DNA of 64,000 bases, from positions 100,894-164,893 of the forward strand of contig JBAZMP010000003.1 of NCBI GenBank assembly GCA_041649715.1, written 5' to 3'. Made by a program: the position numbers and the translations under genes. The notes below the pieces were generated by a model. It was not told the DNA's origin, searched no databases, and saw only the letters and a list, made by a program, of their open reading frames with translations. The DNA comes from Patescibacteria group bacterium. Its GTDB lineage: Bacteria; Patescibacteriota; Patescibacteriia; JAXHNJ01. Shown piece after piece: positions 12,975-27,480 of the stretch. How positions within the stretch are numbered: position 1 is the first letter of the stretch; each line of letters begins with the position of its first letter.

Positions 12975-13049
12975 TGGCAGGGGCGCCTGGATTCGAACCA
13001 GGAATAATGCTTTTGGAGAGCATTGTGATAGCCATTTCACTACACCCCC
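12975..13049 (-). tRNA. tRNA-Trp (anticodon CCA), CCA encoded
   Basis: Minus-strand cloverleaf GGGGGTGTAGTG..ATGCT-CTCCAAA-AGCAT..GGTTCGAATCC..CGCCCCTGCCA. Anticodon loop CUCCAAA. Confidence 0.8.
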
Positions 13050-13354
13050 AGATAATAGATACGGATTATTTCAATTCCTTATGCCCCGTATGCTTACGGC
13101 ACCATCGGCAGTGTTTTTTTAGCTGCAGTTTTTCTTTAACGGTCTTTTTGTTCCTTTTGGAATAATAATTGACGTGTTTGCACACCGTGCATTGGAGTTT
13201 GACGAGATTGTCCTGGGACATGAATTTAAGTTGATTTAAGTTGATTAGTTTATTGAGTTAATTAAGATCATTTTTGACTTGATAAATAGTTGAAATATTT
13301 ATTTAAGCCGACTAGTAATCCTTCATATTCTCGGTCAATTTCTGCAAACGCCTT

Positions 13355-13427
13355 AGCCCACGGTCAGATTCGAACTGACGACCTACTGTTTACAAAACAG
13401 TTGCTCTACCAGCTGAGCTACGTGGGC
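13355..13427 (-). tRNA. tRNA-Thr (anticodon UGU), no encoded CCA
   Basis: GCCCACGTAGCTCAGCTGGTAGAGCAACTGTTTTGTAAACAGTAGGTCGTCAGTTCGAATCTGACCGTGGGCT. Anticodon loop UUUGUAA. Confidence 0.8.
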
Positions 13428-13536
13428 TCGGGCTAAGGCGGGCGGGTCTACCAACTGTCACCCAGAGGGTGATCCGCCTCTGGCGGAAGCTACGTCGGCC
13501 TGTCAGATTTAAGAAAAACGTAATATCCATCCCCAG

Positions 13537-13623
13537 TGGTGGGCAGGGTAGGATTCGAACCTACGAAGCCCGGAGGGCAGCAGATTTACAGTCTGCCCCA
13601 TTTGACCACTTTGGTACCTGCCC
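13537..13623 (-). tRNA. tRNA-Tyr (anticodon GUA), class II long variable arm, CCA encoded
   Basis: GGGCAGG..GCAGA-CTGTAAA-TCTGC-TGCCCTCCGGGC..GTAGGTTCGAATCCTAC-CCTGCCCACCA. Confidence 0.8.
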
Positions 13624-13668
13624 ACCACTGGGGACGAAAAATATTTATTAATTAAACAACATTGGATT

Positions 13669-13697
13669 CGCCGTGTACCAGTAAACGGTACACGGCG
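13669..13697. other. Perfect 11-bp/7-nt-loop hairpin (cgccgtgtacc-agtaaac-ggtacacggcg) between tRNA-Tyr and its partial copy
   Basis: Perfect palindrome with no adjacent U-run. A processing or stability element rather than a canonical terminator. Confidence 0.4.
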
Positions 13698-13722
13698 ACG
13701 TGATCCCTCCAGTGGTTCACGT

Positions 13723-13795
13723 CGAACCTACGAAGCCCGGAGGGCAGCAGATTTACAGTCTGCCCCATTTGACCACTTTGGTACCTGCCCACTAT
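13723..13795 (-). pseudogene. Partial duplicate of tRNA-Tyr (5' end through variable arm; T-arm and 3' acceptor strand replaced)
   Basis: 13723-13791 is identical to 13555-13623 of the intact tRNA-Tyr. The downstream part ('gtgatccctccagtggttcacgt') cannot form a T-arm or acceptor stem. Confidence 0.65.
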
Positions 13796-13889
13796 TGTTT
13801 TCAATAATTGTTTTTAAGTAACTTTTTGAATGCCTTCCCGCCTTTATTAGAATATATACATTATACATTACACATAATACATAATTGAT

Positions 13890-14170
13890 ACAGATTTATG
13901 CCGCCTTTGTCGGCACCCCGGCCGCGGGCGGTGGCAGTCTGTCCATTTACCTGTCCGCCTCGGTTGGAACCGCGGAGCCTGCCCCGAGCTAAGTCAAGGG
14001 GGTACCTGCCCCTAGATTGTCAAAAAGGATGAAGCCCAAAAGCGGATTTGTTACCCTACGGGTGATCTCCCGAAGGGAGATACCGATGATCCTTCGTTTA
14101 CCCTCAGGACAAGCTCTACTCCTTACCCCTCCTTCGCCTACGGCTTCGGAGGGCAGACATGTAGTTGTAA
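13890..14170 (-). other. G+C-rich unassigned, probably structured RNA-like element inside the tRNA cluster
   Basis: About 280 bp of locally high G+C with many short helices (gatctcccgaagggagatc, cggcttcgg, cctgccccgag/cctgcccctag) between two minus-strand tRNAs and co-oriented with them. No convincing ORF. RNase P RNA, tmRNA and SRP RNA signatures are not recognisable by eye. Confidence 0.3.
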
Positions 14171-14183
14171 TTTGTCTGCGGCC

Positions 14184-14259
14184 TGGAGCCGATGGTCGGA
14201 TTTGAACCGACGACCTACTCCTTACCATGGAGTTGCTCTACCAACTGAGCTACATCGGC
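14184..14259 (-). tRNA. tRNA-Thr (anticodon GGU), CCA encoded
   Basis: GCCGATGTAGCTCAGTTGGTAGAGCAACTCCATGGTAAGGAGTAGGTCGTCGGTTCAAATCCGACCATCGGCTCCA. Anticodon loop AUGGUAA. Confidence 0.8.
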
Positions 14260-14290
14260 ATCCCCAGGCCGCAGACAAATTTAAATTTAT

Positions 14291-15181
14291 TTACAAAGAA
14301 TCTATCTGTTTTTTTATTTCCTCGAGTTTTTTGTTCTCCGGATTGACGGCCTGCAATCGGTCAAAGGTCCTGATCGCCAAACCCTTATTTTTCATCTCCA
14401 GACAAACCTGGAGAAGATTATGCAAAATCTTGGGATTTTTAGGTTCTAGTTTTAAAGCCTCTTGGCAGCAGTGTAAAGCCTTGTCTGTCTGACCTAAAGC
14501 CTGATAAACACGGGCTAAATCCAGGTAGTAGGAGGGTTTTTTGTTATTATAAGTGATAGAAGCTAAAAGTTCTTCTTCCGCTTCTTTCAGGTTTCCCAGC
14601 GAAGAAGCGACCAGTCCAAGACCGGAAAGGGCCTGATCATCGGACGCGTTCAATTTAATAAGGAATCGGAATATCTCTTTAGCATGCTCGAAATCCTTCA
14701 TTTCGAGGTAGAGATCGCCCAAATAATGATAGGCGTCTAAATTTTTCGCGTCAAGGCTTAAGACCTCAACACATTTGCCTTCCGCTTCCTTAAAAAGTTC
14801 CCGGTCCTTCAAGGCTCCTGCTTCGCTTAAAAGACTGGAAATTTTCCGCTCTTGTTCGCTTTTTTCTTCCAGGGTGGTCGGGGTTTTGCTTCGGCGCTGA
14901 TATCTTTTTTCCAGTTCGATGATATTCTGGCGCCAATTCCGGGCCTGGTTTTCCAATTTTTTATACACAGGACGGCTATACTTGCTGACTTTTTGAAAAA
15001 GGTTCGAGGCTTTCCTTTTTAGTTTTTGTTCGATCAATTGTTCTTTGACCTGATTCTCCTTTTCTTGGGGCACTTTTTTGATGTCAATGACGCTTAAAAC
15101 GGGAAATTTTCTGATAATAATAATGATGATAACGCTTATAGCGATTAGACCGATGAGGCCGGTGATAATATCTATCAGCAT
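14291..15181 (-). CDS. TPR-repeat protein with N-terminal membrane anchor
   Basis: N-terminal TM helix, then several 34-aa TPR-like units (AYHYLGDLYLEMKDFEHAKEIF.., YYLDLARVYQALGQTDKALHCCQEAL). Confidence 0.55.
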   Translation of the reverse strand: MLIDIITGLIGLIAISVIIIIIIRKFPVLSVIDIKKVPQEKENQVKEQLIEQKLKRKASNLFQKVSKYSRPVYKKLENQARNWRQNIIELEKRYQRRSKTPTTLEEKSEQERKISSLLSEAGALKDRELFKEAEGKCVEVLSLDAKNLDAYHYLGDLYLEMKDFEHAKEIFRFLIKLNASDDQALSGLGLVASSLGNLKEAEEELLASITYNNKKPSYYLDLARVYQALGQTDKALHCCQEALKLEPKNPKILHNLLQVCLEMKNKGLAIRTFDRLQAVNPENKKLEEIKKQIDSL

Positions 15182-19864: not shown

Positions 19865-20011
19865 GGGGAGTTAAAATCAAAAATAAAACCTTTTCATTTT
19901 CAACCCCCAAATACGAAAAGGAGTGTAAATTTGGGGAAAAAGTCGTGTTGTTTGACAACCGAATACACTGTTTATCTTATCCCGACACCTCAAGAAAGGA
20001 GTAGGGAGAAT

Positions 20012-20302
20012 GTGAAGACGAAAACACGGGATGCGCCGATCAAAGTCCGGGTCGGGGCCGTGGAACAAAAGGGCGAGCACGGGGTGCCGTTCCTGGTTAC
20101 CTGGCCAACGAGCCCGACTTTGAAAGATTTAGGCAGTATCACGATCGAGCAGACAGCCGAGACCCTGCTAGGTGAACCCCCCTGTACGGGTGGCGAATAC
20201 CTAGTGGCTTTTGGTGTCTACCAGAAGGAAAAGGGTTGGCGTGCTCAAAAAGCCCGCCGATTCCGTCCGGATGATTTCAGAAATCCTGACATCATCCAGT
20301 AA
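20012..20302 (+). CDS. Hypothetical small protein (first gene of GC-rich island)
   Basis: GTG start preceded by 'aaggag' about 10 nt upstream. About 96 aa (VKTKTRDAPIKVRVGAVEQKGEHGVPFLVTW..). G+C-rich. Confidence 0.45.
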   Translation: MKTKTRDAPIKVRVGAVEQKGEHGVPFLVTWPTSPTLKDLGSITIEQTAETLLGEPPCTGGEYLVAFGVYQKEKGWRAQKARRFRPDDFRNPDIIQ

Positions 20303-20356
20303 AAGCATCGAGCATGTAGAACATGAGCATGTAGCACTCAGAAAGGATCGGCTACA

Positions 20357-21067
20357 ATGGCCAAGAAATCAATAAGGGGTTTGTTTGTCAAGACTGACGG
20401 ACAAGCTCCCAGACCCGGGTCCCCTTCCGGAAGTGCTTGGGCTCCGCCGGCTGGAACAGGTTTTGTCCCCGGCTCAGCTCCCAAGTCATATCTGGATACC
20501 GGCCCCCGGCGCGGTCAATCAAGCGGGAACGCGACCGCGGTAACTTCTACCGCCGTCGACACGCAGTTTACGGCCGAGATCGAGGAACAGCTCCGGACCG
20601 TGCCGACTCCCAAGGGTTTCGACATGTTCCTGGGCGCCCTCGAAAACTTGACCCAGTTCATCCCCGACGAAGGAAACCGCTTCAAGGCGGCGATGGTAAC
20701 GGCGGCCGCCAGCGGGCTGACGCCGGCACAAATCGTCGAGGCCCTGGAAGCGCAGCTGGCAGCCCTGGAAAAAATCCTGGCGACCTTCCAGAGCGATCTG
20801 GAAACGGAAGCCAACGAGTCGATCGCCGAACGCGAGTCGCAGCTAAAAACGCTGGCGACCCAGATCGGCGACCTCCAGCGGCAGCTGGCCGACATACAGA
20901 GAGAAATGCAGAAACTCTCTGACGATCAGAGAAGACTACAGGATGAAAACGCCCAGGTCGAGCAGCGTAAAAGCTTGGTAACCAACCGTTACTCAAGCGC
21001 GCACGCGGCCAAACTGGGCAAAACCCAAGAGCTGCTTTCAAAGGTACAGCGGTACCTCGGGCAGTAG
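20357..21067 (+). CDS. Hypothetical protein: Pro/Gly/Ser-rich disordered N-terminus plus helical/coiled-coil C-terminal half
   Basis: 236 aa. RBS 'aggatcgg' upstream. The C-terminal half has heptad-like text (LEAQLAALEKILATFQSDLE..LQRQLADIQREMQKLSDDQRRLQDENAQVEQ). Confidence 0.55.
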   Translation: MAKKSIRGLFVKTDGQAPRPGSPSGSAWAPPAGTGFVPGSAPKSYLDTGPRRGQSSGNATAVTSTAVDTQFTAEIEEQLRTVPTPKGFDMFLGALENLTQFIPDEGNRFKAAMVTAAASGLTPAQIVEALEAQLAALEKILATFQSDLETEANESIAERESQLKTLATQIGDLQRQLADIQREMQKLSDDQRRLQDENAQVEQRKSLVTNRYSSAHAAKLGKTQELLSKVQRYLGQ

Positions 21068-21081
21068 GAAAGAGGAACGAA

Positions 21082-22185
21082 ATGGTAGAGACACCCTCTT
21101 TGCCGCAGCTCAAGGGCTTCGGCAATGACATGCTTTCAAGCAAGGAGAAGACAATCGGAGCGATTGTCACTATCCTGCTGATTGGCGCCGCGCTGCTCGG
21201 GCTTAATGCCCTTCTTCCCGGCATCAATCATTTTCTCTCGGGTCTGCTGGCCGCGGTCGGCAAGCTCGTGATGCTTGCCATCTCCCTGGCCGGCCTAGCC
21301 TTGTTCCTGGCCGTCGCCATGAACAAGCGGACCCACACGCTTCTCAAGCTGGGGTTCTACTGGCTGGCGCGCAAGACCACGATGGCCTTCGTCAGGTACG
21401 GCCCGACCACCATCATTGAGATCTACAACGATCACCTGACCGCAAAAGCTCAGAAGTTCGGCGAGAAAAAGATGGTCGTGGATTCCAAGCGGGAGGTCGT
21501 GGCGCGCACCATTGAAGAGAACCAGGCTTCGATCAACGAGAGCCAGGCGAACGCCAAAACTCTCAAATCCCGGCACTTCGACGACAAACAGAGAAGGTGG
21601 GATTCGATCGAACACAAGAATCTCTTCATGGAGTACAGCTCGAACATCAGCTTCCGCGAGGCCTCCAACGTGAATCTGCGCAAGCAGCTTATCAGGCTGG
21701 AATACTATCTCCAGATCCTGGAGAAGTTCCAGCAGGCGTTCAATCACCGCCGTAACGTGATCAAGAACTTCTGCAAGATCCTAAACACGGAGTACGAAGC
21801 CATGAAGGCGGCCGCGGAGGGAACTCACGAACTCTCGGCGCTCTTCGGCACCGACGACCTAAAGCAGGTCTTCGACATGACCATCGACTTCATGAGAGAG
21901 CGGATCGCTTTCTTCACGAGCGAGGTCGACACCTTTATGAGCGAGAACCTGCCGGTCGTCACCGAGCTCGACCTGCAGAACGAAGTGGCGGAAGACCAGC
22001 TTCTCGCCAGACTGACGGACATGGACAAGAAAGCCGATCACCTGATCGACCAGGCCGCCCAAGATGAGGTGGCCCTGACCGATATCCGGGGATTGGCAAC
22101 GTTGGTCAAGTCCAACCAGGCAACCGCGGCCACCCAAACGACGCCCTCTTCAACAAGAAGGCATCGCTACCTGGGCGGAAACTAA
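21082..22185 (+). CDS. Hypothetical membrane protein (2-3 N-terminal TM helices, long cytoplasmic helical domain)
   Basis: 367 aa. TM segments IGAIVTILLIGAALLGL / LSGLLAAVGKLVMLAISLAGLALFLAV. The remainder is predicted helical. Starts 15 bp after the previous stop, so it is probably co-transcribed. Confidence 0.55.
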   Translation: MVETPSLPQLKGFGNDMLSSKEKTIGAIVTILLIGAALLGLNALLPGINHFLSGLLAAVGKLVMLAISLAGLALFLAVAMNKRTHTLLKLGFYWLARKTTMAFVRYGPTTIIEIYNDHLTAKAQKFGEKKMVVDSKREVVARTIEENQASINESQANAKTLKSRHFDDKQRRWDSIEHKNLFMEYSSNISFREASNVNLRKQLIRLEYYLQILEKFQQAFNHRRNVIKNFCKILNTEYEAMKAAAEGTHELSALFGTDDLKQVFDMTIDFMRERIAFFTSEVDTFMSENLPVVTELDLQNEVAEDQLLARLTDMDKKADHLIDQAAQDEVALTDIRGLATLVKSNQATAATQTTPSSTRRHRYLGGN

Positions 22186-22238
22186 TAAGTCTCTCATTTT
22201 CCCAATTCTCAACCAGAAAAGTCAGTAAAGGAGTAGTC

Positions 22239-23717
22239 ATGAAAAACCTTACTCTTCTCTCGAAGGTCCTGATCGGAGTCGTGATCCTCGCAATCGTCGG
22301 TTCCCTCCTGTGGTTCAGCGGCATCCTCAACAAGGAGCGGCCGCTGCGGGTCAGCGTGGTCACCTGGGGTGGCTATGCCGGGGGACAGCTTTGGAACGAA
22401 GGTTTCAAAGCCAGCGAGGAAAGCCGCTTCCTTAAGGAATACGGCGTTCCCGTCGAGTTCGTCCTGAACGATGATATCGAAAGCAGCTTGAAGGCTTGGG
22501 AAGCCGGCGAAGTTGACGCTCACTGGTGGACCGCCGACGTATTTTCGACGGTCGCTGATGAGCTAGCCGCTTACAATCCCAAGGTCTTCATGCAGGCTGA
22601 CTGGTCCAGAGGCGGCGACGCCATCGTGGTCGTTCGCGGCATCAATTCCGTGAACGATCTGCGAGGCCGGAAAATCGCCGTCGCTTTCAAGACCCCCAGT
22701 CACAGCTTTCTGCTTTGGGCCCTTGAATCCGCGGGCATGACCCCGAACGACGTCCAGATCGTGGAAGTCGCTTCCGCCATCGACGCGGCGGCGGCATTCA
22801 AAGCTGGACAAGTCGATGCGGCTGTTGTTTGGGCACCGGATGATCAAGGCTGTGTCGATGCGGTACCCGGCTCAACAATCTTGGCCAACACCAAGGATGC
22901 CAAGTACATCATCAGCGACGTCTTCTTCGCGAAAGAAGAAGTCCTCGTCGCCCGCCATGACGATTTTGTTTCCCTGGCGGAAGGCTGGCTCAAAGGCAGC
23001 GCGTTGATCAACACCGATCCGACGGCCAAGAACAGAGCGGCTGAAATCCTCTCAACTGGATTGAGCGTATCGGTAGATTACGCTCTCGGAGCCATCAACA
23101 ATGTTCGCCTCACCACTCTGGGAGACAACATCAACTTCTTCAACATCAATGGCAACTACCAGGGCGTCAAGGGCGAAGACATTTATACCAAGACGGGAAG
23201 AATGTACCAAAAGTACGGCATCATCAAGGGAAGCTTTCCGGATTGGCGCTCTGTCGTCGATCTTTCAATCGTGAAGGAAGTCATCGAAAGAGGCAAGCTG
23301 ACGGGCAATATGAACGCGGCTGAAGCGGCCACGACCTTCGAGCGGCCGACCGAAAAGATGGCCTCCGCCCCGGCCATGGCGACCAAACGCGTGACGATCA
23401 ACTTCGCCACCAACGTTTACGCCTTGGACGAAAACGCCATGCGCATCCTTGACCTGCAAGCGGCTGACGCTCTGCGGTTCATGGGCGGCGTACGCGTCCG
23501 TATCACTGGCAACACCGATAATGTCGGCGATTACCAGATGAACATGAACCTGTCCCAGAAGCGGGCCGAAGCGGTCGCCGATTACCTGGCGAGAACCTAC
23601 AAGTTCGACCGCAACCGGTTCGTCATCGTGGGCAAGGGTCCGGACAATCCGGTCGCCTCAAATGAGACGCCGGACGGCCGGGCAAAGAACCGTCGCACGG
23701 ATATCGAACTCTTCTAG
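22239..23717 (+). CDS. Membrane-anchored NMT1/SsuA-type ABC substrate-binding protein fused to a C-terminal OmpA-like domain
   Basis: N-terminal anchor (LLSKVLIGVVILAIVGSLLWF). Central domain resembles nitrate/sulfonate/taurine-type binding proteins. The C-terminus carries an OmpA-C-like segment (NTDNVGDYQMNMNLSQKRAEAVADYL..GKGPDNPVASNETPDGRAKNRRTDIELF). Confidence 0.6.
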   Translation: MKNLTLLSKVLIGVVILAIVGSLLWFSGILNKERPLRVSVVTWGGYAGGQLWNEGFKASEESRFLKEYGVPVEFVLNDDIESSLKAWEAGEVDAHWWTADVFSTVADELAAYNPKVFMQADWSRGGDAIVVVRGINSVNDLRGRKIAVAFKTPSHSFLLWALESAGMTPNDVQIVEVASAIDAAAAFKAGQVDAAVVWAPDDQGCVDAVPGSTILANTKDAKYIISDVFFAKEEVLVARHDDFVSLAEGWLKGSALINTDPTAKNRAAEILSTGLSVSVDYALGAINNVRLTTLGDNINFFNINGNYQGVKGEDIYTKTGRMYQKYGIIKGSFPDWRSVVDLSIVKEVIERGKLTGNMNAAEAATTFERPTEKMASAPAMATKRVTINFATNVYALDENAMRILDLQAADALRFMGGVRVRITGNTDNVGDYQMNMNLSQKRAEAVADYLARTYKFDRNRFVIVGKGPDNPVASNETPDGRAKNRRTDIELF

Positions 23718-23814
23718 GGCCACGGCCTGAAAGATAGTTTGGTATCATACCGCCAAAGGGGCGGGAGTCAACTGATTCCCGCCCCTCTCATCAACCTCCT
23801 GGGAAGGAGAACGA

Positions 23815-24612
23815 ATGCATAACAATGGAGACCTGTTTTGCCTCCGAGGCAAACTGCCGCCGAAAACTCGAATGGTAATCGAGCTCGCCGGCCTGGTCAT
23901 CATTCTCCTTGTCTGGTGGGCGGTCGTCGCGACTGGTCTGGTCAAGCCGAAAATGCTGCCTTCACCGATTTCCGTCGTTACCTGCTTCGGTGAACTGGTG
24001 AAGCAAAATCACTTGGTCGGAAACCTGCTCTTCTCGTTGATGCTCAACATCCTGGGGTATATTGAGGCCATCCTGATCGCTGTACCGCTTGGTTTTCTGA
24101 TCGGCCTCCAGCCTATCCCGCGAGCCCTGAGTGAAAGATACATCACCGCCGGACGGTTCCTGCCGCTTTCGGCCGTGGTCGGTCTGTTCATTATGTGGTT
24201 CGGGATGTACACCAACATGAAAGTGCAGTTTCTGAGCTTAGGCATCGTTGTCTATCTCCTGCCGATGGTCATCCAGAGAGTCGACGAGGTCGATCAGATC
24301 TATTTCGACACCGTCAAGACTCTGGGCGCCAGCAAATGGCAGGCCGTGACGAGCGTTTTTATCCCGGGTGCGCTCTCCAAGATCTCTGACGACATCCGGG
24401 TCATCGTCGCCATAAGTTGGACCTATATCATCATCGCTGAGGTGGTGAACAGGACCCAAGGCGGCATCGGAGCGCTGTGTTACGGCGTCAGTCGCGCTAG
24501 CCGTCCGGACAAAGTATTCGCCATTTTGGCTATAATCATCCTGATCGGGATCGTCCAGGACAAATTCTTTCTTTTCCTGGACAAGAAACTCCTCAAGCAC
24601 AAGTACGTCTGA
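23815..24612 (+). CDS. ABC transporter permease (NitT/TauT family, SsuC/TauC-like)
   Basis: Six TM helices. Region resembling the EAA loop (..LGASKWQAVTSVFIPGALSKISDDIRV..). RBS 'ggaaggag' upstream. Confidence 0.7.
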   Translation: MHNNGDLFCLRGKLPPKTRMVIELAGLVIILLVWWAVVATGLVKPKMLPSPISVVTCFGELVKQNHLVGNLLFSLMLNILGYIEAILIAVPLGFLIGLQPIPRALSERYITAGRFLPLSAVVGLFIMWFGMYTNMKVQFLSLGIVVYLLPMVIQRVDEVDQIYFDTVKTLGASKWQAVTSVFIPGALSKISDDIRVIVAISWTYIIIAEVVNRTQGGIGALCYGVSRASRPDKVFAILAIIILIGIVQDKFFLFLDKKLLKHKYV

Positions 24613-24630
24613 ACAAAGGAGGTTTGAAAG

Positions 24631-25446
24631 ATGCCGACGCTACTCCCAGTCGTCTTCGAAAATACAAACCTCCCGGACGTCATCGAGCTGCGCAACATTT
24701 GCCAGACGTACGACGGAGGAAAGGCTTGGGTCTTACAGTATGTCAACCTCCTGATCGAGGACATCCCCGACCAGGGACAGTTCGTGGTCATACTCGGACC
24801 CTCAGGCTGCGGCAAATCAACGCTTCTGAAATATATTGCCGGCCTGCAAAAACCGACCAGTGGGGAAGTGCTGATCAGCGGAAAGGTCCGTACCGATGAC
24901 GTCGTCGTCGGCATGGTCTTCCAGCAGTACTCCTCCCTGCCCTGGTTCACGGTACTTGAGAACGTCATGCTGGGGCTAAGGTTTCAGAACGTGCCGGAGA
25001 AGGAAGCCCGGGAAAAAGCGATGCAAATGCTCGAAGTCGTCGGACTGGCCTGCGAGGCGAACAAATTCGCCAAAAGCACCCAGCTTTCCGGCGGCCAGAT
25101 GCAGCGCGTCGCCATCGCCCGCAGCTTGATCTCCAACCCCGGCATTATCCTGATGGACGAGCCGTTCGGCGCCCTGGACATCAACACCAGGCACCAGATG
25201 CAGCTCCTCCTCTGCGATATCTGGGAAAAGCTGCAGTCAACCATCATCTTCGTCACCCATGATATCAACGAAGCCGTGTTCCTGGCTGACGATATCTATG
25301 TGATGACGAAGAACCCCGGTTACATCTGCAAGCACTGGATAATTGACCTGCCCAAGCATCGTGACCGGTCAACCAAGCGTGACCCGCGGTTCATCGAACT
25401 CGCCAACGAGATCGATGATTACATGCAGAACTTACGCATCAAATAG
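24631..25446 (+). CDS. ABC transporter ATP-binding protein (NitT/TauT family)
   Basis: Walker A GPSGCGKST, signature LSGGQMQRVAIARSL, Walker B ILMDEPFGALD, H-loop VTHD. Confidence 0.85.
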   Translation: MPTLLPVVFENTNLPDVIELRNICQTYDGGKAWVLQYVNLLIEDIPDQGQFVVILGPSGCGKSTLLKYIAGLQKPTSGEVLISGKVRTDDVVVGMVFQQYSSLPWFTVLENVMLGLRFQNVPEKEAREKAMQMLEVVGLACEANKFAKSTQLSGGQMQRVAIARSLISNPGIILMDEPFGALDINTRHQMQLLLCDIWEKLQSTIIFVTHDINEAVFLADDIYVMTKNPGYICKHWIIDLPKHRDRSTKRDPRFIELANEIDDYMQNLRIK

Positions 25447-25468
25447 CTCATTTTTCATTCGCACATAA

Positions 25469-25500
25469 GGCTGACCCCTCAAAAGGTCAGCCTTTTTCTT
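25469..25500 (+). terminator. Rho-independent terminator after the ABC ATPase gene
   Basis: Stem ggctgacc/ggtcagcc followed by 'tttttctttt'. Confidence 0.6.
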
Positions 25501-25521
25501 TTGCCCAAATTCCTAAAATCC

Positions 25522-25550
25522 TTGACAAATAAATAATTTCGTGCTAATAT
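25522..25550 (+). promoter_or_regulatory. Strong sigma-70-like promoter TTGACA-17-TGcTAATAT for the AAA+ ATPase gene
   Basis: 'cttgacaaat'..'gtgctaatatg'. Same architecture as 19836-19864 and 33648-33676. Confidence 0.5.
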
Positions 25551-25623
25551 GTTGGGTTAATTTGCACCTTGTAATTTTGATATTTTTCACAGAGGCATTG
25601 AAAAAAAGAAAGGCAGGCACAGA

Positions 25624-27480
25624 GTGAAAGATGGTATAAAAAAGCAGCCGTTATCGCACGGAGAAGACGATTTTGAAAGCAGCGGTATTCCCGGTCTCGA
25701 CGACGCGGTCAAATCACTGGATAACATTCCCAAAATCCTGGGCCGCAGACGAGAAATGACGCGGAAAACGGAAGGTCATCTTCGCAAAGAAATGGCCGAA
25801 ACCGGCGAAACAGAGGAAAATCCTCTTCAGCCGGCCCTGGTTCGCGCCATGATCACCGCGGGCAAGCTCGCCCGTCATCTCGAGTCACAGCGGGAAAAAC
25901 CCGGCTATTACGGCGTGGTTTTTTCCCGACTGGCAGCAATGACCGATCCGGAAAAGTTCGATTACGGCAAGATTCAGCCGGGCACCAAGGTCAAAATCCT
26001 CACCAACGAAAACCAGCCGGAATTAATGGGGCAAGTGGGCTACACAGCCAACGAACCCGATTCGGACGGTCTTGTCATGGTGCTTTTCGATGAAGGCGAA
26101 TTCGGCCATTTCCTGGCTGTGCCGCCGGACGAAAAGCAACCGAGGGAGATCGAAATTGTCCCCGGCCAAGACCGAGTCATCGTCCTTTTCGAAGGACGCT
26201 TCATCGAGCTGGCTTCTCCGGAAGGAATGACCCTTTCCAGCGGCCAGGTGGTCAAGCTGGATCTGAAAACCAACCAGATCCTGGATATCGTCAGCCTAGA
26301 ACTGCCGGGCGAGATCGCCACGGTAAAATGTATCTTGGGCGGCCGCGTCCAAATCGACTTCCACGGTACCGATAAAATCGTGGCGGCCGGCGACCTGACC
26401 AAGACCTTAGAGCCCGGCAATCAGGTGATCTTAGACTCAACCAACCAGCTGATCACTGGCAACCTCGGCGACATGGATGTTTCCTACCGCTACAACCGCC
26501 CGCCGGCCATCACCTGGGATGATATCGGCGGACAGACCGCAGCCAAAGCCATACTCCAAGAGATGATTGAGGCGCGCTTCGATCATCCGGCCGCTTTTGA
26601 AAGGTTTCACAAGAAACCCCCCAAGGGCCTGCTTCTGCTCGGCCCCACCGGCTGCGGCAAGACGATGTTGGCCGAAGCCATGGCCTATTCGCTTTCGAAG
26701 CGCTTCGGTGAAACCGCCATGCGTTCCGGCTTTTTCCTGGTCAAGGGACCGGAGATTCTGCGCTCGCTCGTCGGCGAACAGGAAGCTATCATGCGCCACA
26801 TCTTCGTCCTGGCAGACAAGCACTTCGCCAAATTCGGCTTCCCCGCCATCATCTTCATCGATGAATGCGAAGGCATCTTGAAAAAGCGGGGCACGGGCAC
26901 CAGCGGCGACTACTTCGAAACGCTGGTGCAAACCTTCTTGGCCCTGATGAACGACACCAAGGCCATCGTCGTACTGGCGACAAATAGGCCGGATATGCTC
27001 GACCCGGCGGTGGTCCGCCACAAGCGCATCGACCGCAAGATTCCGGTTCGTCGTCCGGATCGGCCGGCCTCCGAGGAAATCTTCAGAATCTATCTGAAAG
27101 ATCTCCCTCTCTCCGAGGGCTTGACCGGCGAGACACTGGCCAAACTGGTGACAACCGAGCTTTTCTCGGACTGCTACGGCATGTACAAACTCATTGTCCA
27201 GACCGAAAACGGAACAGAAGAGAAAATCTTTGGCCTAGCGCAGGTCATCAACGGCGCCATGATCGCCGGGATAGTAGATGAGGCCACCTCGGCCGCCGTC
27301 AACCGGCAGATCAAAGACGGTAAGGAAACCAGTCTGACCGCAGATGACCTAAAAGAAGCCCTGAGCAGAGTCTATCAGGGCGAACTCCTGACCGATCACA
27401 CCGAAGACCAGAAAGAATTCGGGGAAAACCTGACCGGCAAGGTCCTGGAAGCCCACAAGCTCTTTGTGGGCCGCAAATAG
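25624..27480 (+). CDS. ARC/Mpa-family (proteasome-associated-ATPase-like) AAA+ unfoldase; no C-terminal GQYL-type proteasome-docking tail
   Basis: Predicted GTG start. N-terminal short helix, then a beta-rich inter-domain region, then an AAA module: ITWDDIGG, Walker A LLLGPTGCGKT, Walker B IIFIDECEG. ARC/Mpa-like stretches (FFLVKGPEILRSLVGEQE.., KKRGTGTSGDYFETLVQTFL, ATNRPDMLDPAVVRHKRIDRKIPVRRPD) are matched against the ARC/Mpa family from memory. The protein ends ..LFVGRK. Confidence 0.75.
   Translation: MKDGIKKQPLSHGEDDFESSGIPGLDDAVKSLDNIPKILGRRREMTRKTEGHLRKEMAETGETEENPLQPALVRAMITAGKLARHLESQREKPGYYGVVFSRLAAMTDPEKFDYGKIQPGTKVKILTNENQPELMGQVGYTANEPDSDGLVMVLFDEGEFGHFLAVPPDEKQPREIEIVPGQDRVIVLFEGRFIELASPEGMTLSSGQVVKLDLKTNQILDIVSLELPGEIATVKCILGGRVQIDFHGTDKIVAAGDLTKTLEPGNQVILDSTNQLITGNLGDMDVSYRYNRPPAITWDDIGGQTAAKAILQEMIEARFDHPAAFERFHKKPPKGLLLLGPTGCGKTMLAEAMAYSLSKRFGETAMRSGFFLVKGPEILRSLVGEQEAIMRHIFVLADKHFAKFGFPAIIFIDECEGILKKRGTGTSGDYFETLVQTFLALMNDTKAIVVLATNRPDMLDPAVVRHKRIDRKIPVRRPDRPASEEIFRIYLKDLPLSEGLTGETLAKLVTTELFSDCYGMYKLIVQTENGTEEKIFGLAQVINGAMIAGIVDEATSAAVNRQIKDGKETSLTADDLKEALSRVYQGELLTDHTEDQKEFGENLTGKVLEAHKLFVGRK

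Follow-up and report, generated by a model that had tools for sequence, protein, structure and literature searches.

A half-copy of tRNA-Tyr interrupted by a double hairpin in a Patescibacteria tRNA cluster, a candidate relic of a GIY-YIG nuclease cassette

How does a truncated copy of a tRNA gene come to lie beside the intact gene, with a pair of hairpins at its broken end? This question is raised by a 64,000-nucleotide stretch of a Patescibacteria genome (GenBank assembly GCA_041649715.1, contig JBAZMP010000003.1, positions 100,894 to 164,893), hereafter called the window, in which tRNA-Tyr is preceded by a partial duplicate of itself, PsiTyr-2. A sequence-only reading of this locus, made without database searches, had described the duplicate and one of the hairpins and had left their origin unclear. 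The origin is less obscure now, as the same cluster carries, in related genomes, small GIY-YIG genes flanked by truncated, hairpin-interrupted tRNA copies. With a little better than even confidence, we favour the view that PsiTyr-2 is the relic, devoid of its open reading frame (ORF), of a cassette, driven by a nuclease, that disrupts a tRNA gene and makes it whole again by means of the tRNA piece that it carries. The earlier suspicion of a recombination or mobile-element scar is thereby borne out as a class of explanation.

Anatomy of the half-copy and of its T-loop insert

PsiTyr-2 occupies positions 13722 to 13790 of the minus strand and is identical to positions 1-69 of tRNA-Tyr, through the TTCGA of the T loop. 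The intact gene, a tRNA-Tyr(GTA) with an encoded CCA that is recognised by ARAGORN and Rfam, lies downstream on the same strand (13537-13623), and the 69 nt of the copy match its segment 13555-13623 with 100% identity (repeat search; blastn E 9e-33). The copy comprises the 5' acceptor strand, the D arm, the anticodon arm, the long variable arm, the 5' strand of the T stem and TTCGA; the final ~20 nt, which would include the 3' strand of the T stem, the 3' acceptor strand and the CCA, are missing or not recognisable. ARAGORN does not call it as a tRNA and it scores 22.2 bits under the Rfam tRNA model, below the gathering score of 29; neither program reports the second copy as a complete functional tRNA. 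PsiTyr-2 is a pseudogene, a dead duplicate of tRNA-Tyr. The sequence-only reading was right to announce an exact, non-functional copy of the 5' portion, which it placed one base off, at 13723-13791. It had also regarded the T arm as replaced; the loss of the 3' T-stem strand and of the 3' acceptor strand stands, whereas the 5' T-stem strand and TTCGA are kept and T-loop sequence resumes after an insert.

This insert consists of two adjacent hairpins. Hairpin 1 (13697-13723, minus strand; GACGTGA-ACCACTGGAGGGA-TCACGTC, with a 13-nt loop) starts directly after GGTTC; its edge is ambiguous by 2-3 nt, so that its coordinates overlap those of PsiTyr-2. Hairpin 2 (13670-13696, minus strand) reads GCCGTGTACC-GTTTACT-GGTACACGGC, and its palindrome extends to 12 perfect bp around a 7-nt loop (arms 13668-13679 and 13687-13698). 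For either hairpin the chance expectation is 0 (for Hairpin 2, in shuffles of the window). After the pair, the T-loop sequence is resumed by GAATCC (13664-13669, minus strand, by direct reading). The two hairpins form a 54-nt insert located exactly at TTC^GAATCC in the T loop of PsiTyr-2, and DNA folding of this insert gave z = -5.7 relative to shuffles. Hairpin 2 is the palindrome that had been noticed previously: it is real, it measures 12 bp (13668-13698) and not 11 (13669-13697), and the adjacent hairpin had been missed. It had been seen as a separator of the two tRNA copies and turns out to be one member of the hairpin pair that is inserted in the T loop of the dead one.

Beyond 13664, tRNA sequence is unrecognisable in PsiTyr-2; when its 3' flank was compared with the 3' end of the tRNA, 15 of 22 positions matched or differed by a transition, ~11 being expected. 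An AT-rich spacer of 30 nt (13634-13663, minus strand) leads from the dead copy to the leader of the intact gene. It contains no ORF, and it is here that relatives hold a GIY-YIG ORF. Altogether, PsiTyr-2 and the intact tRNA-Tyr are 98 nt apart.

In positions 13200-14320, no group I or group II intron, ribozyme or known small RNA was matched in Rfam, even at E ≤ 10. At the gathering threshold the whole window yielded tRNA matches only, and the permissive threshold, applied to 13200-14320, added microRNA and long non-coding RNA noise. No terminator-like site or promoter was called at the hairpins in a scan of 13660-13730; there is no U tract, and GAATCCAATG follows the hairpin. No further copy of either hairpin was found in the 64-kb window with up to 3 mismatches allowed. 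A repeat resembling a miniature inverted-repeat transposable element within the window is unsupported, both hairpins being single-copy. In the viral contigs scanned, neither the T-loop hairpin of the window nor the conserved anticodon-loop double hairpin described below found a match.

On the minus strand, an 8-bp complementarity between AAACAATA and TGTTGTTT (13793-13800 and 13651-13658) encloses the dead copy together with its hairpins. The RNA fold with this enclosing stem has z = -3.0 and resembles the leader-trailer stems of live tRNAs. In AT-rich sequence the complementarity could be due to chance, for which a rough estimate is 1-5%.

The sequence-only reading had framed the locus in terms of integrases, and PsiTyr-2 does share with integrase attachment (att) scars a partial tRNA duplicate beside an intact gene and a break in the anticodon loop or the T loop. 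Reportedly, Williams in 2002 counted the T loop as one of the two classic crossover sublocations of tyrosine integrases in tRNA genes. However, att scars duplicate the 3' part of the tRNA, lie kilobases apart and come with a recombinase, and none of this holds for PsiTyr-2. The duplicated part is the 5' portion, the two repeats are separated by less than 100 nt, and no recombinase is present among the genes called within +/-10 kb, in agreement with the earlier remark that no integrase was to be seen; the equivalent spacers of relatives hold GIY-YIG ORFs instead. As three of its four defining features are lacking, the attL/attR-type scar of a since-deleted integrase-mediated element is effectively refuted as an explanation, and we hold it to be very improbable.

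Broken tRNA copies and GIY-YIG genes in related loci

The window was compared with related loci, which are designated by L-numbers; L005 is the closest relative with data, and L003 corresponds to GCA_043812155.1. The proteins encoded near the cluster assign the window to a metagenome-assembled genome of Patescibacteria. The order TPR-Thr(GGT)-Tyr-Thr(TGT)-rpmG-Trp is kept in ~80 species-level Patescibacteria genomes. Some of the spacers in this cluster are so short that the genes nearly abut (0-35 nt), and others measure hundreds to ~3900 nt; the compact cluster is the ancestral state and the long spacers are additions. No available relative shows the exact T-loop copy as an ancestral tandem.

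When each tRNA was searched against its own locus, exact fragments of at least 15 nt were found beside the intact gene in 29 of the 95 loci. The fragments starting at tRNA position 1 are located upstream of the intact gene in every case (15/15), and those reaching the tRNA 3' end are located downstream of it (20/20). The anticodon loop (at 35|36), the T loop and the D loop are the places where breaks are found repeatedly. Furthermore, an automatic scan returned 32 candidate cases, of which a minority are weakly folding and far from the cluster, where tRNA sequence resumes after an insert of ~19-97 nt folding as one, typically two hairpins.

Double-hairpin inserts at TTC^GAATCC are present not only in the window, but also in L005, L012, L065 (three times), L068 and L097. 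Those of L012, L065 and L097 have a common design, G.C...G.C G.C...G.C, with 8-bp stems and 4-nt loops; they differ from each other by paired (compensatory) changes, and their stems stay perfect. The pair in the window follows this design too, its stems being longer. A second conserved element, CCACCGCC-nnn-GGCGGGG TGCCGCC-nnn-GGCGGCA, is inserted in the anticodon loop, at TG^TAAA of tRNA-Tyr copies. In L013, L014, L017, L022, L027 and L078 the stems of this element do not vary and its loops do, and it is also found at TTTTG^TAAA in tRNA-Thr(TGT) copies.

In L014, the intact tRNA-Tyr is separated from a 5' half of tRNA-Tyr by sequence that encodes a GIY-YIG protein. A profile search detected 17 GIY-YIG ORFs in 969 kb of related loci, and all 17 have a tRNA on the same strand within 400 nt, mostly at less than 40 nt; the fraction of the 969 kb that lies so close to a tRNA is 13.5%. 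These ORFs encode 74-88 aa and match Pfam PF01541 with 55-62 bits. They consist of the catalytic domain only, with no C-terminal DNA-binding module, and their catalytic residues are intact, Y6, Y17, G19, R27, H31 and E63 being invariant. In the PDB, their products come closest to the UPF0213 proteins BH0048 and EF2693 (E 2e-19), followed by SLX1 (E 7e-8), and the match with I-TevI is marginal (E 0.007). Prokaryotic SLX1-like proteins are the minimal stand-alone form of the GIY-YIG domain (PMC1564403). Since they measure ~80 aa and are nearest to UPF0213, then to SLX1, the relatives' ORFs can be assigned to this minimal form.

The ORFs are also closely associated with hairpins, which are located within ~4-40 nt upstream of the ORF in 17 cases out of 17. 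The recurrent unit contains, in this order, a tRNA 5' part, a double hairpin placed in a loop, some further tRNA bases, the ORF and an intact tRNA. The version made of Tyr 1-35, the anticodon-loop double hairpin, the ORF and an intact Tyr was observed in L013, L014, L017, L022 and L027. In L005, a T-loop double hairpin is followed by the ORF and by Tyr, and the hairpin pair recurs in a downstream tRNA-Tyr 3' fragment. The unit is also found in arrays. In L028 (7701-8387), two perfect 336-nt tandem units, each with leader, tRNA-Trp 1-36, GC hairpin and GIY-YIG ORF, precede an intact tRNA-Trp; because the 336-nt duplication is perfect, it reflects a very recent amplification or an ongoing homogenisation. 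Other tandem repeats are the three 111-nt units of L048 and the repeats of L014.

These observations bear on a simpler explanation of the window, according to which the leader and tRNA-Tyr underwent an ordinary tandem duplication by slippage or unequal crossing-over, one copy was later hit by an independently mobile double hairpin, and the GIY-YIG genes are mere operon neighbours. The 167-nt repeat unit is a simple head-to-tail one, and 2-6 leader bases may be duplicated too. In addition, hairpin pairs occur in many tRNA fragments without a nearby ORF (L012, L065, L068 and the Thr(TGT) of L017), and the GC-rich double-hairpin elements known from fungal mitochondria are regarded as self-moving, without target duplications (PMC10085805, PMC2800124). 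However, a tandem duplication leaves unexplained the recurrence of loop break points across genomes and tRNAs, the 17 out of 17 ORFs that abut a tRNA and are preceded by hairpins at short distance, and the repetition of ORF plus half-tRNA as the unit of arrays. Independent mobility of the hairpins is, moreover, at odds with their single-copy status in 64 kb. Taken as a whole, this combination of events is unlikely.

It might also be asked whether the half-copy and its hairpins are maintained by selection as a functional RNA or DNA element, such as a processing, insulating or stability signal or a tRNA-like decoy. The 69 nt are perfectly identical and both flanks are unrecognisable, which speaks for such an element, yet this identity is equally well explained by a recent origin or by gene conversion. 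Perfect hairpin stems of 12 bp and 7 bp, the 8-bp leader/trailer pairing around the dead copy and the conservation of stems with variable loops across genomes are compatible with a function, and the hairpins, always just upstream of the ORF start, are possible 5' untranslated region elements. Older pseudo-tRNA modules are also common to the window and L095 (63% TPR identity). In contrast, the hairpins match no Rfam family and lack a terminator-like U tract, the older hairpins of the window are visibly decaying along with the ORF, and many relatives with compact clusters (spacers 0-35 nt) are devoid of such structures. A selected function therefore appears improbable.

The association of ORF and tRNA extends beyond the lineage that carries the cluster. 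A database search with the L017 protein found at least 295 cluster representatives, in many classes of the Candidate Phyla Radiation (CPR) and outside the CPR, and in every homologue context sampled the ORF is immediately upstream of a tRNA. The targets are tRNA-Ser(CGA) in Doudnabacteria, tRNA-Ser(GCT) in Melioribacter roseus P3M-2 and Melioribacter sp. OK-6-Me, and tRNA-Tyr in two further Patescibacteria. In M. roseus P3M-2 (L101, 1370-2375; CP003557) and in OK-6-Me (L107, 1930-2940), an array of two identical tandem units and a decayed third one stands before the intact tRNA-Ser(GCT). The unit contains Ser 1-21, a D-loop double hairpin, Ser 22-35/40 and a GIY-YIG ORF of 80-101 aa; the hairpin stems are identical in the two Melioribacter species and the loops differ. 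Both hosts are cultured, non-CPR bacteria, and CP003557 is a finished genome.

In Doudnabacteria (L097, 1870-2400; GCA_001777705.1), hairpins, a GIY-YIG ORF and an intact tRNA-Ser(CGA) lie between the two ends of one tRNA-Ser (GGAGAGG... and ...CCTCTCCGCCA). The downstream end comes after a T-loop double hairpin, and the split tRNA-Ser differs from the intact tRNA-Ser(CGA). To judge from its sequence, a cassette carrying its own tRNA seems to have entered a resident tRNA gene and to have split it; insertion of this kind predicts just such a layout.

Many small GIY-YIG homologues are found on contigs of 500-900 nt, and such short contigs would be the expected product of repeated cassettes breaking assemblies. 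Related loci do show trouble at these repeats, with runs of N in L014 and with the contigs of L005 and L095 ending inside them. Could the half-copy of the window itself be an artefact, i.e. a repeat-induced mis-join in a metagenome contig? The contig name (k141_...) implies a k of 141, which exceeds the 69 nt of the repeat; the sequence at the junctions is unique, and the architecture recurs in many independent assemblies, the finished genome CP003557 included. Such an artefact is extremely improbable.

A decayed nuclease gene and the proposed origin of PsiTyr-2

Upstream of PsiTyr-2, the window contains an older, degenerate tRNA-Tyr 5' half, PsiTyr-1 (13935-14011, minus strand), which reads GGGCAGGTACC, a 51-nt insert and TAAATGGACAGACTG; the same structure is found starting at the end of the L095 contig. 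A decayed anticodon-loop double hairpin of 36 nt (CCACCGCC..GGCGGGG TGCCGCC..GGCGGCA; 13899-13934, minus strand) is located at ACTG^TAAATC of PsiTyr-1. Downstream of this double hairpin and 11 nt upstream of PsiTyr-2 lies the remnant of a GIY-YIG gene (13801-13868, minus strand). It is made of MYNVYILIK (13868-13842) and, in a different frame, of KGGKAFKKLLKNNY followed by a stop codon (13845-13801), the middle ~60 codons being deleted.

When a hidden Markov model of the relatives' ORFs was run against the six frames of the 64-kb window, the two best matches were an N-terminal motif at 13895-13731 and a C-terminal motif at 13860-13804. Taken singly they are weak (E 0.17 and 0.23); the two are colinear and on the tRNA strand, and their joint position is the one predicted from the layout of relatives. 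The C-terminal piece GGKAFKKLLKN resembles the subtype associated with the anticodon-loop element (GGEAFKKLIEN in L017). Just upstream of MYNVYILIK, the minus strand carries at 13873-13884 a tiny N-terminal-like sequence, ATG TAT TAT GTG TAA (MYYV and a stop), which may point to the presence of additional decayed GIY-YIG starts in the remnant. Since in relatives the intact tRNA-Tyr directly follows the ORF stop, and since this place is held here by PsiTyr-2, the latter appears to stand at the original position of tRNA-Tyr, so the present intact gene would lie one unit further downstream.

The sequences themselves establish the anatomy, its presence in other genomes, the close association of ORF, tRNA and hairpins, and the intact catalytic residues of the relatives' ORFs. 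From these arrangements we infer the cutting of tRNA genes by the nuclease, the location of the cut, the repair route and the order of events, as follows. The cassette would be composed of a GC-rich double hairpin, a stand-alone GIY-YIG gene of ~80 aa (UPF0213/SLX1-like) and a piece or the whole of the target tRNA. The nuclease would break the tRNA gene at a loop-coding position, and recombinational repair from a cassette-bearing copy would insert the double hairpin, the ORF and the replacement tRNA part. In this way, an intact tRNA would be regenerated downstream and the original 5' part would be stranded upstream as a hairpin-capped half-copy, in which the hairpin insert would abolish the target sequence. 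Repeated rounds would give rise to tandem arrays, and later deletions would remove the ORF. Such cleavage and copying are supported indirectly by the tandem arrays and by the split tRNA-Ser of L097. In the case of the window, tRNA-Tyr would have been broken in its T-loop DNA and functionally replaced by the intact copy 98 nt downstream. The ORF of this T-loop cassette would be gone, and that of the older anticodon-loop cassette would be reduced to two short fragments.

Since neither cassette of the window has an intact ORF, PsiTyr-2 probably has no activity today, and is likely transcribed along with the tRNA operon and then discarded. It is a dead relic with no obvious present function, and its value is that of a pointer to a widespread arrangement.

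Several points weigh against this origin. First, the window is without an intact nuclease gene, the two remnant matches (E 0.17, 0.23) are individually weak, and the remnant belongs to the older anticodon-loop unit and not to the T-loop unit of PsiTyr-2. In related loci, an ORF follows the T-loop double hairpin in L005 only, and not in L012, L065, L068 or L097. The closest relatives obtained by protein lookup are uninformative for the PsiTyr-2 site, the cluster being collapsed in L003 and the contigs of L004, L095 and L096 ending before it; a metagenome scan with the neighbouring TPR protein found only relatives that are at most 36% identical. Furthermore, the GIY-YIG proteins of different genomes are 45-67% identical, roughly in step with the divergence of their hosts (TPR 29-56%), with no excess of GIY-YIG similarity over host TPR identity that would indicate recent horizontal transfer. 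Because the two divergences run in parallel, they suggest long residence and not recent spread, and a long-resident GIY-YIG gene is possibly compatible with a host role.

The nature of the nuclease raises a further difficulty. As the ORFs have no DNA-binding domain and are nearest to UPF0213/SLX1, and not to Seg or I-TevI, sequence-specific homing is perhaps unlikely. Our guess, by analogy with SLX1 and given the absence of a DNA-binding domain, is that cutting may be structure-specific and directed at the hairpin or cruciform DNA of tRNA genes. The hairpin-pair form of the inserts and the way in which they arrive are left unexplained by the proposed scheme.

The strongest outside support for a nuclease cassette comes, by analogy, from experiments on SegB of phages T4 and T6, a free-standing GIY-YIG homing endonuclease encoded in a tRNA gene cluster, which cuts inside tRNA genes (PMC13096335; PMC2330249). 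Its cleavage motif is RAWTSGAAC, the complement of which, GTTCSAWTY, is T-loop sequence (PMC13096335), and SegB drives the recombination-dependent tandem amplification of a tRNA-Tyr segment (PMC13096335; PMC2330249). Common to both systems are thus a GIY-YIG gene among tRNA genes and, in the complement of the motif, the site at which the window copy is broken. However, SegB, which is encoded by phages, measures ~220 aa and has a DNA-binding region at its C terminus, whereas the ORFs described here are chromosomal, encode ~80 aa, contain the catalytic domain only and are UPF0213/SLX1-like. In addition, SegB units amplify whole tRNAs, and neither hairpin-pair inserts nor truncated, hairpin-capped tRNAs are described for SegB.

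A second comparison concerns the double-hairpin elements (DHEs) of fungal mitochondria (Allomyces, Schizosaccharomyces), which are considered mobile in the passages of PMC10085805 and PMC2800124 that cite Paquin et al. 2000. As in the present case, each DHE is a short GC-rich insert in a genome richer in AT and folds as a pair of adjacent hairpins whose stems are conserved and whose loops vary; target-site duplications are not seen, and DHEs are tolerated only where function is unharmed. The recognised hallmarks displayed by the window hairpins are two adjacent stable hairpins and a GC content higher than that of the surroundings. Unlike the inserts described here, which are bacterial, occupy tRNA loop-coding positions and stand beside a GIY-YIG ORF, DHEs are mitochondrial and lie in intergenic regions, introns and variable regions of rRNA. 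The two share no sequence similarity; the likeness is one of architecture. Dispersed-repeat hairpin elements differ in another respect, as they are present in many copies per genome and the window hairpins are unique in 64 kb.

Fungal mitochondria also harbour mobile endonuclease ORFs (Allomyces atp6-ORF360, the 'mORFs' of arbuscular mycorrhizal fungi) that follow the logic of the proposed cassette, in that they insert in a host gene, carry a replacement part and leave a displaced pseudogene fragment. Their targets are protein-coding and the part carried is the 3' end, whereas the target in the window is a tRNA gene and the part carried is the 5' portion.

Finally, group I introns that are self-splicing and often missed by annotation are known in functional tRNA-Asn and tRNA-Asp genes of Patescibacteria (PMC13011429). 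The host group and the insertion in tRNA genes are the same as here, but no intron model was matched at our locus, one end is missing from the interrupted copies, which are accompanied by an intact gene free of any insert. No GIY-YIG proteins, hairpins or partial tRNA copies are mentioned in PMC13011429.

Already known, then, are an endonuclease with a carried gene part in fungal mitochondria, DHEs, and GIY-YIG enzymes acting on the tRNA clusters of T-even phages. In the literature searched, which did not extend to subscription journals, we found no account of bacteria whose chromosomes carry minimal GIY-YIG cassettes together with tRNA fragments interrupted by hairpins. We would only tentatively propose, at rather less than even confidence, that PsiTyr-2 is the footprint of a widespread, undescribed class of bacterial mobile elements, in which a minimal SLX1/UPF0213-type GIY-YIG nuclease and a GC-rich double hairpin target the loop-coding positions of tRNA genes, possibly by DNA structure (hairpin or cruciform) rather than by sequence, and carry a replacement tRNA piece that would allow the host to survive. 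If true, this class would be a bacterial counterpart of the fungal mitochondrial double-hairpin elements and mobile endonuclease ORFs; double-hairpin elements would be extended from fungal mitochondria to bacteria and tied to a nuclease. The tRNA clusters of Patescibacteria, and of some other bacteria, would be colonised by a selfish nuclease cassette, which would explain their variable spacers (0 to ~3900 nt), their many tRNA fragments and the assembly breaks that occur in them. A large family of stand-alone GIY-YIG proteins of ~80 aa (UPF0213/SLX1-like) would also receive a biological role. Since the architecture is present in the cultivable M. roseus, the mechanism is amenable to experiment.

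Intact genes, older relics and side observations

The window contains four tRNA genes, all on the minus strand and in one cluster between the TPR-protein gene (14291-15181) and rpmG/tRNA-Trp. Besides tRNA-Tyr, these are tRNA-Thr(GGT) (14184-14259) and tRNA-Thr(TGT) (13354-13428), both intact according to ARAGORN and Rfam, and tRNA-Trp(CCA) (12975-13049). Leader-trailer inverted repeats of 18, 10 and 11 bp enclose three of the four intact tRNAs. The repeat of tRNA-Thr(GGT) is perfect over 18 bp (14264-14281 / 14169-14186), and that of tRNA-Thr(TGT) measures 11 bp (13430-13440 / 13349-13359). In the case of tRNA-Tyr, the leader CCCCAGTGGT (13633-13624) pairs with ACCACTGGGG (13540-13531) over 10 bp and prolongs the acceptor stem through the discriminator base and the CCA. 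In related loci, at least 8 coaxial extra pairs were counted in 14 of 224 tRNAs, against 0 in an offset control. These leader-trailer repeats suggest a double-strand-specific processing of the tRNA operon transcript.

PsiTyr-2 is presumably the youngest of at least four broken tRNA relics in this Thr-Tyr-Thr cluster, in each of which a loop position (D, anticodon or T) is interrupted by hairpins. In addition to PsiTyr-1, a degenerate copy of tRNA-Thr(GGT), PsiThr(GGT), was delimited at 14030-14168 (minus strand) by repeat matches and by alignment with L005. Its anticodon loop is opened at CATG^GTAAGG by a hairpin insert (14157-14127), another insert occupies 14115-14051, and orthologous structures exist in L005, L017 and L095. 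The segment CTGCCCTCCG at 14147-14156 had been taken for a fragment of the tRNA-Tyr variable arm; this is wrong, as the L005 alignment identifies it as part of the hairpin insert in the tRNA-Thr(GGT) anticodon loop. The fourth relic, a PsiThr 5' fragment (13447-13499, minus strand), is a D-loop insertion made of GCCGACGTAGCT, a double hairpin at 13487-13458 (TCCGCCAGAGGCGGA TCACCCTCTGGGTGA) and CAGTTGGTAGA. Analogous D-loop double hairpins are present in L003, L008, L013, L039 and L085.

In L003 (6905-7050; TPR 65% identical), the cluster is collapsed to 188 nt with one tRNA-Thr(GGT)-like sequence. The 5' acceptor strand of the latter, GCCCACC, is of the Thr(TGT) type and is unpaired with the 3' strand CATCGGC, and ARAGORN misses this tRNA. 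It is preceded by a GTAGCT-hairpin-CAGTTGG fragment, which resembles positions 13499-13447 of the window. The L003 tRNA-Thr looks like a chimeric or broken gene and exemplifies a concern for annotation, in which hairpin-interrupted or chimeric tRNA copies are miscalled or missed.

Elsewhere in the window, the region 20000-26000 has a G+C content of 0.52-0.57, against ~0.45 in the remainder. It encodes an ABC transporter set, composed of an NMT1/phosphonate-binding-OmpA protein, a permease and an ATPase, and may have been horizontally acquired.

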